Sequence record: NC_001416.1
DNA: 48,502 nt
Direction: 5' to 3' (one strand)
DNA from: Escherichia phage Lambda
Made by a program: the position numbers and the translations under genes. This document shows, one piece after another, positions 14,128 through 14,875 of the stretch. The notes under the pieces were generated by a model. It saw only the letters and a program-made list of their open reading frames with translations, had not been told where the DNA came from and searched no databases. How positions within the stretch are numbered: the stretch's first letter is position 1; each line of letters starts with the position of its first letter.

Positions 14128-14275
14128 ATCCCATGACACAGACAGAATCAGCGATTCTGGCGCACGCCCGGCGATGTGCGCCAGCGGAGTCGTGCGGCTT
14201 CGTGGTAAGCACGCCGGAGGGGGAAAGATATTTCCCCTGCGTGAATATCTCCGGTGAGCCGGAGGCTATTTCCGT

Positions 14276-14875
14276 ATGTCGCCGGAAGACTGGCTGCAGG
14301 CAGAAATGCAGGGTGAGATTGTGGCGCTGGTCCACAGCCACCCCGGTGGTCTGCCCTGGCTGAGTGAGGCCGACCGGCGGCTGCAGGTGCAGAGTGATTT
14401 GCCGTGGTGGCTGGTCTGCCGGGGGACGATTCATAAGTTCCGCTGTGTGCCGCATCTCACCGGGCGGCGCTTTGAGCACGGTGTGACGGACTGTTACACA
14501 CTGTTCCGGGATGCTTATCATCTGGCGGGGATTGAGATGCCGGACTTTCATCGTGAGGATGACTGGTGGCGTAACGGCCAGAATCTCTATCTGGATAATC
14601 TGGAGGCGACGGGGCTGTATCAGGTGCCGTTGTCAGCGGCACAGCCGGGCGATGTGCTGCTGTGCTGTTTTGGTTCATCAGTGCCGAATCACGCCGCAAT
14701 TTACTGCGGCGACGGCGAGCTGCTGCACCATATTCCTGAACAACTGAGCAAACGAGAGAGGTACACCGACAAATGGCAGCGACGCACACACTCCCTCTGG
14801 CGTCACCGGGCATGGCGCGCATCTGCCTTTACGGGGATTTACAACGATTTGGTCGCCGCATCGACCTTCGTGTGA
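14276..14875 (+). CDS. K: Tail tip assembly protein gpK (JAB/JAMM core plus NlpC/P60-like cysteine peptidase region); N-terminal extent uncertain, see findings
   Basis: ORF track 14276..14875 (199 aa); HSHPGGLPWLSEAD JAMM motif at 14333-14374; upstream ORF 14133..14363 in another frame resembles the JAB N-terminus. Confidence 0.85.
   Translation: MSPEDWLQAEMQGEIVALVHSHPGGLPWLSEADRRLQVQSDLPWWLVCRGTIHKFRCVPHLTGRRFEHGVTDCYTLFRDAYHLAGIEMPDFHREDDWWRNGQNLYLDNLEATGLYQVPLSAAQPGDVLLCCFGSSVPNHAAIYCGDGELLHHIPEQLSKRERYTDKWQRRTHSLWRHRAWRASAFTGIYNDLVAASTFV

Follow-up and report, generated by a model that had tools for sequence, protein, structure and literature searches.

The 48,502-nt sequence of Escherichia phage Lambda analysed here (NC_001416.1; the whole of it is henceforth called the window) very probably lacks one G within tail gene K: the real lambda K would be a single protein of 247 residues, and the gap an error of the published sequence. 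In every independent lambda or lambda-like sequence that we examined an extra G is found between positions 14266 and 14267. With this base restored, positions 14133 to 14875 form one open reading frame (ORF) of 247 aa that starts 6 nt past the stop codon of gene L.

As it stands, the window (gene order M-L-K-I-J) presents K in two frames, and all features described here lie on the + strand. The stop codon of L (TAA) occupies positions 14125–14127; it is followed by an ATG-initiated ORF of 76 aa at 14133–14363, which begins MTQTESAILAHARRCAPAESCGFVVSTPEGERYFPC, and by the ORF annotated as K, 199 aa in length, at 14276–14875. The first of these starts in frame 0 and the second in frame 2. The K frame is shut by a TGA at 14255–14257 and is open from 14258 on; the frames overlap at 14258–14363, and it takes a −1 shift to leave the upstream frame and enter that of K. 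The original prediction had placed the end of L, the two ORFs and the core of the JAMM motif at these same coordinates, all of which are confirmed by the letters and the ORF list, and a check of the frames bears out the overlap and the direction of the shift.

Comparison with the Pfam Prok-JAB profile (PF14464; 114 positions, curated cut-off 25 bits) shows how the protein is divided. The 76-aa product matches profile positions 3–41 (22.6 bits, E = 1e-4), while the 199-aa K matches positions 63–112 (23.3 bits) and then the full NlpC/P60 profile (49.9 bits). Judged by these matches, the two products are complementary halves of one Prok-JAB domain, each below threshold, and the JAB likeness of the upstream product exceeds chance. 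The claim that the upstream ORF supplies the N-terminal E-x-CG segment of a JAB/MPN domain thus stands, as does the claim that the HxH-x7-S-x2-D core (HSHPGGLPWLSEAD, 14333–14374) lies in the K frame. The exact 76-aa product does not occur in a collection of ~15 billion proteins.

Details of the missing base are as follows. Where the window reads GGAGGC-TATTTCC, the other sequences read GGAGGC-G-TATTTCC, a difference that emerges from alignment, from genome comparisons, from scans of sequence collections and from a published report (PMC6256539). In the alignment the G-less junction of the window is GGAGGCTATTTCC; that of DE3, lambda h434 imm21 and O276 is GGAGGCGTATTTCC. The placement of the extra G is unambiguous because its neighbours are C and T. 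When positions 14100–14900 were compared with GenBank phages by megablast, lambda derivatives proved 99.9% identical, the match extending over 802 nt as against 801 nt in the window. The extra G is present in DE3, lambda h434 imm21, O276, LC730321, PV340536 and KT232076, and the K DNA of O276 and PV340536 is the same as that of the window apart from the G.

The restored gene is composed of two stretches of the window. Its true 5′ part (14133–14266, frame 0) comprises codons 1–44 and the first two bases of codon 45, as indicated by the ORF list, by the match to Prok-JAB positions 3–41 and by homologues that align from residues 1–8; the rest (14267–14875, frame 2) comprises residues 46–247 and the TGA stop, as indicated by the ORF list and the repaired translation. 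What follows position 14266 in the upstream ORF (ISVCRRKTGCRQKC...PG*, 14267–14363) is a spurious tail, in which K is read out of frame owing to the missing base. The full-length protein has a mass of 28.3 kDa, versus 23.0 kDa for the annotated K. The two also differ at the N-terminus, which is MSPEDW... in the 199-aa form; the peptide MTQTESAILAHAR belongs to the 247-aa K. The repaired protein gives a single Prok-JAB match (52.3 bits, positions 3–112 of 114) in addition to NlpC/P60, so that the 25-bit cut-off, missed by both fragments of the window, is passed once the G is restored and only then. PDB 2kks, a JAB protein and the only solved structure found by sequence, aligns without a break across the junction (query residues 7–105). 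The exact 247-aa protein was seen on at least 1,000 contigs, and the GenBank records of O276 and PV340536 annotate K as 744 nt, with its start at the equivalent of 14133. The extra G, the single ORF and the continuity of the domain together show that the annotated 199-aa K is without its true N-terminus, as had been predicted from the assumption of a single-base indel in the reference.

Homologues support the same structure. A tblastn search of 50,697 phage records with the repaired protein matched 1,758 records, in 1,718 of which at least 80% of the protein was covered. Sixty rows were sampled, with identities from 100% to 26%: all 60 consisted of one piece in one frame, with the query starting at residues 1–8. 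Eight diverse homologues were then considered (from Mannheimia, Burkholderia, Pseudomonas, Klebsiella and Citrobacter phages, and from HK578, mEp554 and BP-4795), and in all eight K is annotated as a single ORF of 240–293 aa. Seven of these (240–260 aa) have starts that range, relative to the end of the L-like gene, from 31 nt before it to 20 nt after it; the K of BP-4795 is annotated as longer, with a start 128 nt inside its L-like gene, and entered the alignment only from the position corresponding to 14133 onward. Among nine homologues with 27–87% identity the invariant residues are E19, G22, H68, S69, H70, S78, D81, C121, H187 and H199/H200. E19 and G22 sit in the segment that the 199-aa annotation omits, while Met49, the annotated start, is variable. 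At the level of DNA, of the 209 complete loci that were fetched and have the ORF's first 21 nt in common, 190 read through to give exactly 247 aa. The expectation that homologues would have one ORF of ~245 aa spanning both segments is thereby realized. The opposite arrangement, in which homologues start at the equivalent of 14276 behind unrelated sequence, was not encountered: the upstream segment is conserved and Met49 is not.

Full-length K belongs to the lambda-type tail assembly proteins K (TAPK), being of the appropriate size (~240–260 aa), carrying JAB and NlpC/P60 domains and lying between L-like and I-/J-like genes, although in the window the G must first be put back for it to form one ORF. 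Full-length relatives (O276 gp18, AXN57992, 247 aa; PV340536, XSB40720, 247 aa; K of HK629 and HK630; gp20 of Citrobacter phage Stevie) represent the same gene and share the order L-K-I-J. The window differs from them in that the ORF is broken and only the C-terminal 199 aa are annotated.

The JAMM motif E-x(n)-H-x-H-x7-S-x2-D, as it is defined in PMC300881, is complete in the repaired protein, and its residues (E19, H68, H70, S78 and D81) are invariant in the nine homologues. The conserved Glu19, part of E-S-C-G, is encoded by GAG at 14187–14189, outside the annotated K; E19 and G22 align to the P-x-E-x-CG segment of 2kks. Downstream lies the NlpC/P60 (C40) cysteine-peptidase domain (PF00877; residues 111–224 of the 247-aa K, positions 14462–14803), which matches its profile over positions 1–105 of 105 with 49–50 bits against a cut-off of 23 bits and in which C121 (codon TGT, 14492–14494), H187 and H199/H200 are invariant. 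The residues of the NlpC/P60 triad are assigned by what is generally known of the family. K is accordingly predicted to be an N-terminal JAB/JAMM zinc metallopeptidase joined to a C-terminal NlpC/P60 cysteine peptidase. It has the same complete E-x(n)-H-S-H-x7-S-x2-D motif as the Prok-JAB/JAMM (MPN+) metallopeptidases (PF14464, PDB 2kks, AfJAMM), with a full-length match to the profile once the G is restored; it differs from them in that its JAB domain is fused to NlpC/P60 and sits within a phage tail-tip assembly module, and in that its activity is a prediction.

In 2006, Iyer, Burroughs & Aravind (PMC1779556) described the combination of JAB and NlpC/P60 domains together with its link to the ubiquitin-like domain at the N-terminus of gpI; they predicted that the peptidases of K process gpI, acting at the glycine that ends this ubiquitin-like domain. 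According to this prediction from the literature, the processing by gpK would take place during tail-tip assembly. gpK is needed for the assembly of tails yet goes undetected in virions (PMC10721106; PMC12617516).

How K came to be annotated with 199 residues can be read from the sequence around the junction. A GGAGG (14261–14265) precedes the ATG at 14276, and this pair, at 14261–14278, defines the annotated start; in the true gene both are internal, corresponding to residues P43-E44-A45 and to Met49. The missing base splits the JAB domain between an N-terminal segment bearing the Glu and the HxH core, and annotators therefore took the next ATG after a GGAGG, at 14276. There is no evident Shine-Dalgarno motif at the 14133 start, which lies just behind the L stop; translational coupling to L is therefore likely, and the true K is probably expressed in this way. 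A conserved internal start at Met49 was also considered, and was rejected on the grounds that Met49 is not conserved in homologues. There is a small chance that in G-containing lambda the ATG of Met49 also starts a 199-aa isoform that would be devoid of the catalytic Glu of JAB. Such an isoform might be effectively NlpC/P60-only, by analogy with the JAB-less TAPK variants of Iyer et al., and an intact JAB domain might be dispensable for tail assembly.

The existence of the annotated start invites the suggestion that K truly begins at 14276 and that the upstream ORF arose by chance in the spacer between L and K: the ATG behind GGAGG is where K starts in the reference annotation, and also in the copies of it for DE3 and lambda h434 imm21. 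To this suggestion we attach a negligible probability, given that the upstream segment fits the missing N-terminal third of the JAB profile, that it is conserved at the protein level down to 27% identity with E19 and G22 unchanged, that Met49 is unconserved and that homologues have no such spacer. No more credible is the idea that programmed −1 frameshifting, or recoding of some other kind, joins the two frames. Geometrically, a −1 shift inside 14258–14363 would do so, and lambda already has a programmed −1 frameshift at G/GT, where overlapping frames also occur within the tail gene cluster. G/GT, however, combines a slippery heptamer with a layout in two frames that relatives conserve; K has neither. 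No X XXY YYZ heptamer is present in the overlap 14258–14363, as had been claimed. A single slippery-shaped heptamer, T TTC CCC, lies in the upstream frame (the true K frame) at 14231–14237, but it precedes the K-frame stop at 14255–14257, and therefore allows no productive shift: a slip would end after 7 further codons. This heptamer is probably fortuitous. Moreover, both parts of K share one frame in every independent sequence, and there is therefore nothing to recode. The region does not behave as a programmed −1 frameshift, and the unrecognised recoding event that the original prediction had held out as an alternative to an indel is not borne out. A reference from which a G is missing accounts for the split, and what is left to decide is whether the base was lost from the published sequence or from the phage.

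A census of the junction bears directly on this question. Across 5,426 complete E. coli genomes the G-containing junction (a 61-mer) has an exact match in 2,101 records; the G-less junction (a 60-mer) has none. The G-containing junction was found at least 120 times in IMG/VR and at least 120 times among metagenome contigs, and the G-less junction (a 33-mer) was found in neither. Scans that accept either allele gave the same picture: all 121 matches in IMG/VR and all 23 in a set of 185,579 species-representative genomes have the G, and none is without it. Approximately 19 of these 23 are contigs of lambda DNA that contaminate de novo assemblies made for unrelated bacteria – among them Neobacillus, Shewanella (48,542 bp), Pseudomonas (48,442 and 48,392 bp), Chromatium, Bradyrhizobium and Kitasatospora – and their identity to the window is 99.5% or more; 13 of the contaminant contigs differ from it in nothing but the extra G, over up to 8,000 nt. 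They look like DNA from laboratory work or spike-ins that was never removed from public assemblies. The loci of this set (L023–L045) match the window from about 8000 to 21800, three contaminant contigs are near full length (48.4–48.5 kb), and where coverage is given in the contig name it is mostly ~1–2x.

In GenBank the G-less 60-mer was counted in three records, with OR474059 and OR974322 among the matches listed; the third is presumably the record from which the window was taken. OR474059 (OR474059.1) is marked UNVERIFIED and equals the window to which an engineered segment and the marker alleles ind1, cI857 and Sam7 have been added. OR974322 (OR974322.1) is described as a lambda 'isolate' from chicken cloacal swabs and has the coordinates of the reference, with Sam7 present and cI857 and ind1 absent; it also contains an odd cluster of 4 bases at 45037–45041. 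To judge from their sequences, both are probably derived from the reference and not independently assembled. A look-up of contigs that encode the exact 199-aa K, which covered the longest of them, yielded no G-less DNA: all retrieved loci that match the junction pattern carry the G (L014 falls outside the pattern), and 199-aa calls on G-containing contigs are due to annotation habit or to other frameshifts.

Could the deletion nonetheless be genuine? The lambda cI857 S7 stock that was sequenced in 1982 might have lost the G. K would in that event be synthesized either in the form of two polypeptides or solely as the 199-aa chain begun at ATG 14276, and tails would have to be assembled despite a JAB domain that is split or inactive. 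The remaining differences between the window and other lambdas provide some reason to take this seriously. Over their full length, the independent genomes LC730321 (48,503 bp) and PV340536 have only eight departures from the window in common: the extra G, a 138 delG and six SNPs, at 20661, 22444, 25662, 31016, 34934 and 45618. All six SNPs are G:C-to-A:T toward the window, a uniform direction that suggests real mutations of a mutagenised stock as opposed to reading errors; they look like true private alleles of the sequenced strain, and de novo contigs with ind1, cI857, 43082A or Sam7 alleles indeed carry the window's T at 45618. If the six SNPs are real then the published sequence is otherwise faithful, which slightly raises the prior for a real gap. 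Also in keeping with a strain deletion are the two further G-less GenBank records and the GGAGG 10 nt upstream of ATG 14276, from which a short K could be started.

Against a strain deletion stands the fact that no de novo assembled sequence in any collection is without the G. The contaminant contigs, presumably laboratory lambda DNA, all have it; the G-less records look reference-derived; and the invariance of E19 in homologues argues that the N-terminal segment is needed. Some contigs, too, combine alleles of the window's lineage with the G: the window's A at 20661 occurs together with the extra G in four contigs (L037, L164, L179 and L320), one of which (L320) also has the window's A at 22444. 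In addition, one metagenome, 3300004792, yielded both a contig with the G (L325) and a contig with cI857 (L175). Because these alleles co-occur with the extra G, the lineage behind the published sequence itself appears to have the G, and the gap is for this reason most likely an error. No single contig bearing both Sam7 or cI857 and the K site was found, the Sam7 contigs of IMG/VR either failing to span K or being absent from the exact-match lists; the link to the lineage is therefore drawn from shared SNP alleles and one co-occurrence within a sample. Taken as a whole, these data make a true deletion in the sequenced stock quite improbable, and of the pair of causes that had been put forward, sequencing error or strain mutation, they favour the former. 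Another sample, 3300049043, contains four Sam7 contigs, one of them 120,672 bp long, and may reflect an error-bearing long-read assembly.

The DNA next to the missing base offers a plausible reason for an error. Folding of positions 14240–14299 reveals a perfect 6-bp G+C-rich hairpin (CTCCGG-TGAG-CCGGAG, 14249–14264) that ends 2 nt before the missing base and that is present in both the minimum free energy and the centroid structures (z about −2.5). Gel compressions typically arise next to hairpins of this kind, and one could plausibly have led to the loss of the G.

The extra G is already known at the level of sequence, and K belongs to a described family. The base was reported in 2018 in phage O276, at position 14,267 (King & Perez 2018, PMC6256539), and Feiss et al. 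(2022) mention nine departures from the original sequence as frequent among laboratory strains (PMC9119081). Nowhere in the searchable literature did we find it said outright that the 199-aa gpK of the reference and of UniProt is a truncation without the catalytic Glu. What is presented here is therefore the correction of a historical-reference artefact rather than a discovery; its practical weight derives from the wide spread of the short K. The short form is carried in UniRef as TIPK_LAMBD and in UniProt as P03729, and recent work still employs its numbering ('residues 52-182 out of 199 in total', PMC7291167). Records that contain the G continue to annotate the 199-aa K, among them NC_042057.1 (DE3), OM418627.1 and a series of NCBI assemblies (L013–L022); in DE3 (NC_042057) and lambda h434 imm21 the short K leaves a false 149-nt 'gap' after L. 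The presence of the 199-aa K on genomes that have the G shows that the short start of the reference is spreading by homology-based annotation. Whenever gpK is modelled, expressed or mutated from the reference, 48 residues are omitted, including the invariant Glu19, and the JAB domain is truncated.

A second lambda gene, stf, is likewise split into two ORFs in the window by a difference of 1 nt: in LC730321 and in an E. coli prophage (L017) an extra C after position 20832 fuses the side-tail-fibre ORFs orf-401 and orf-314. The stf frameshift of laboratory lambda PaPa is cited as known (PMC10695390). Unlike the gap in K, that of stf is a genuine mutation of the laboratory strain: the window-type allele is found in three de novo contigs (L037, L179 and L320), whereas the K gap is found in none.

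Gene I, which in the window extends from 14773 to 15444, also has more than one candidate start. Alternatives to 14773 lie at 14812 and 14872, and newer records annotate a protein of 190 aa from the GTG at 14872, overlapping the K stop. The 223-aa form of I matches the Pfam profile Lambda_tail_I through residues 14–97 (profile positions 2–83 of 83, 100 bits); with the 190-aa form the match is confined to positions 26–83 (68.8 bits). Given this reduced coverage, the 190-aa start seems to truncate the conserved (ubiquitin-like) domain, and the profile matches point to ATG 14773 or ATG 14812 as the probable true start of I, within the 3′ end of K but in another frame.
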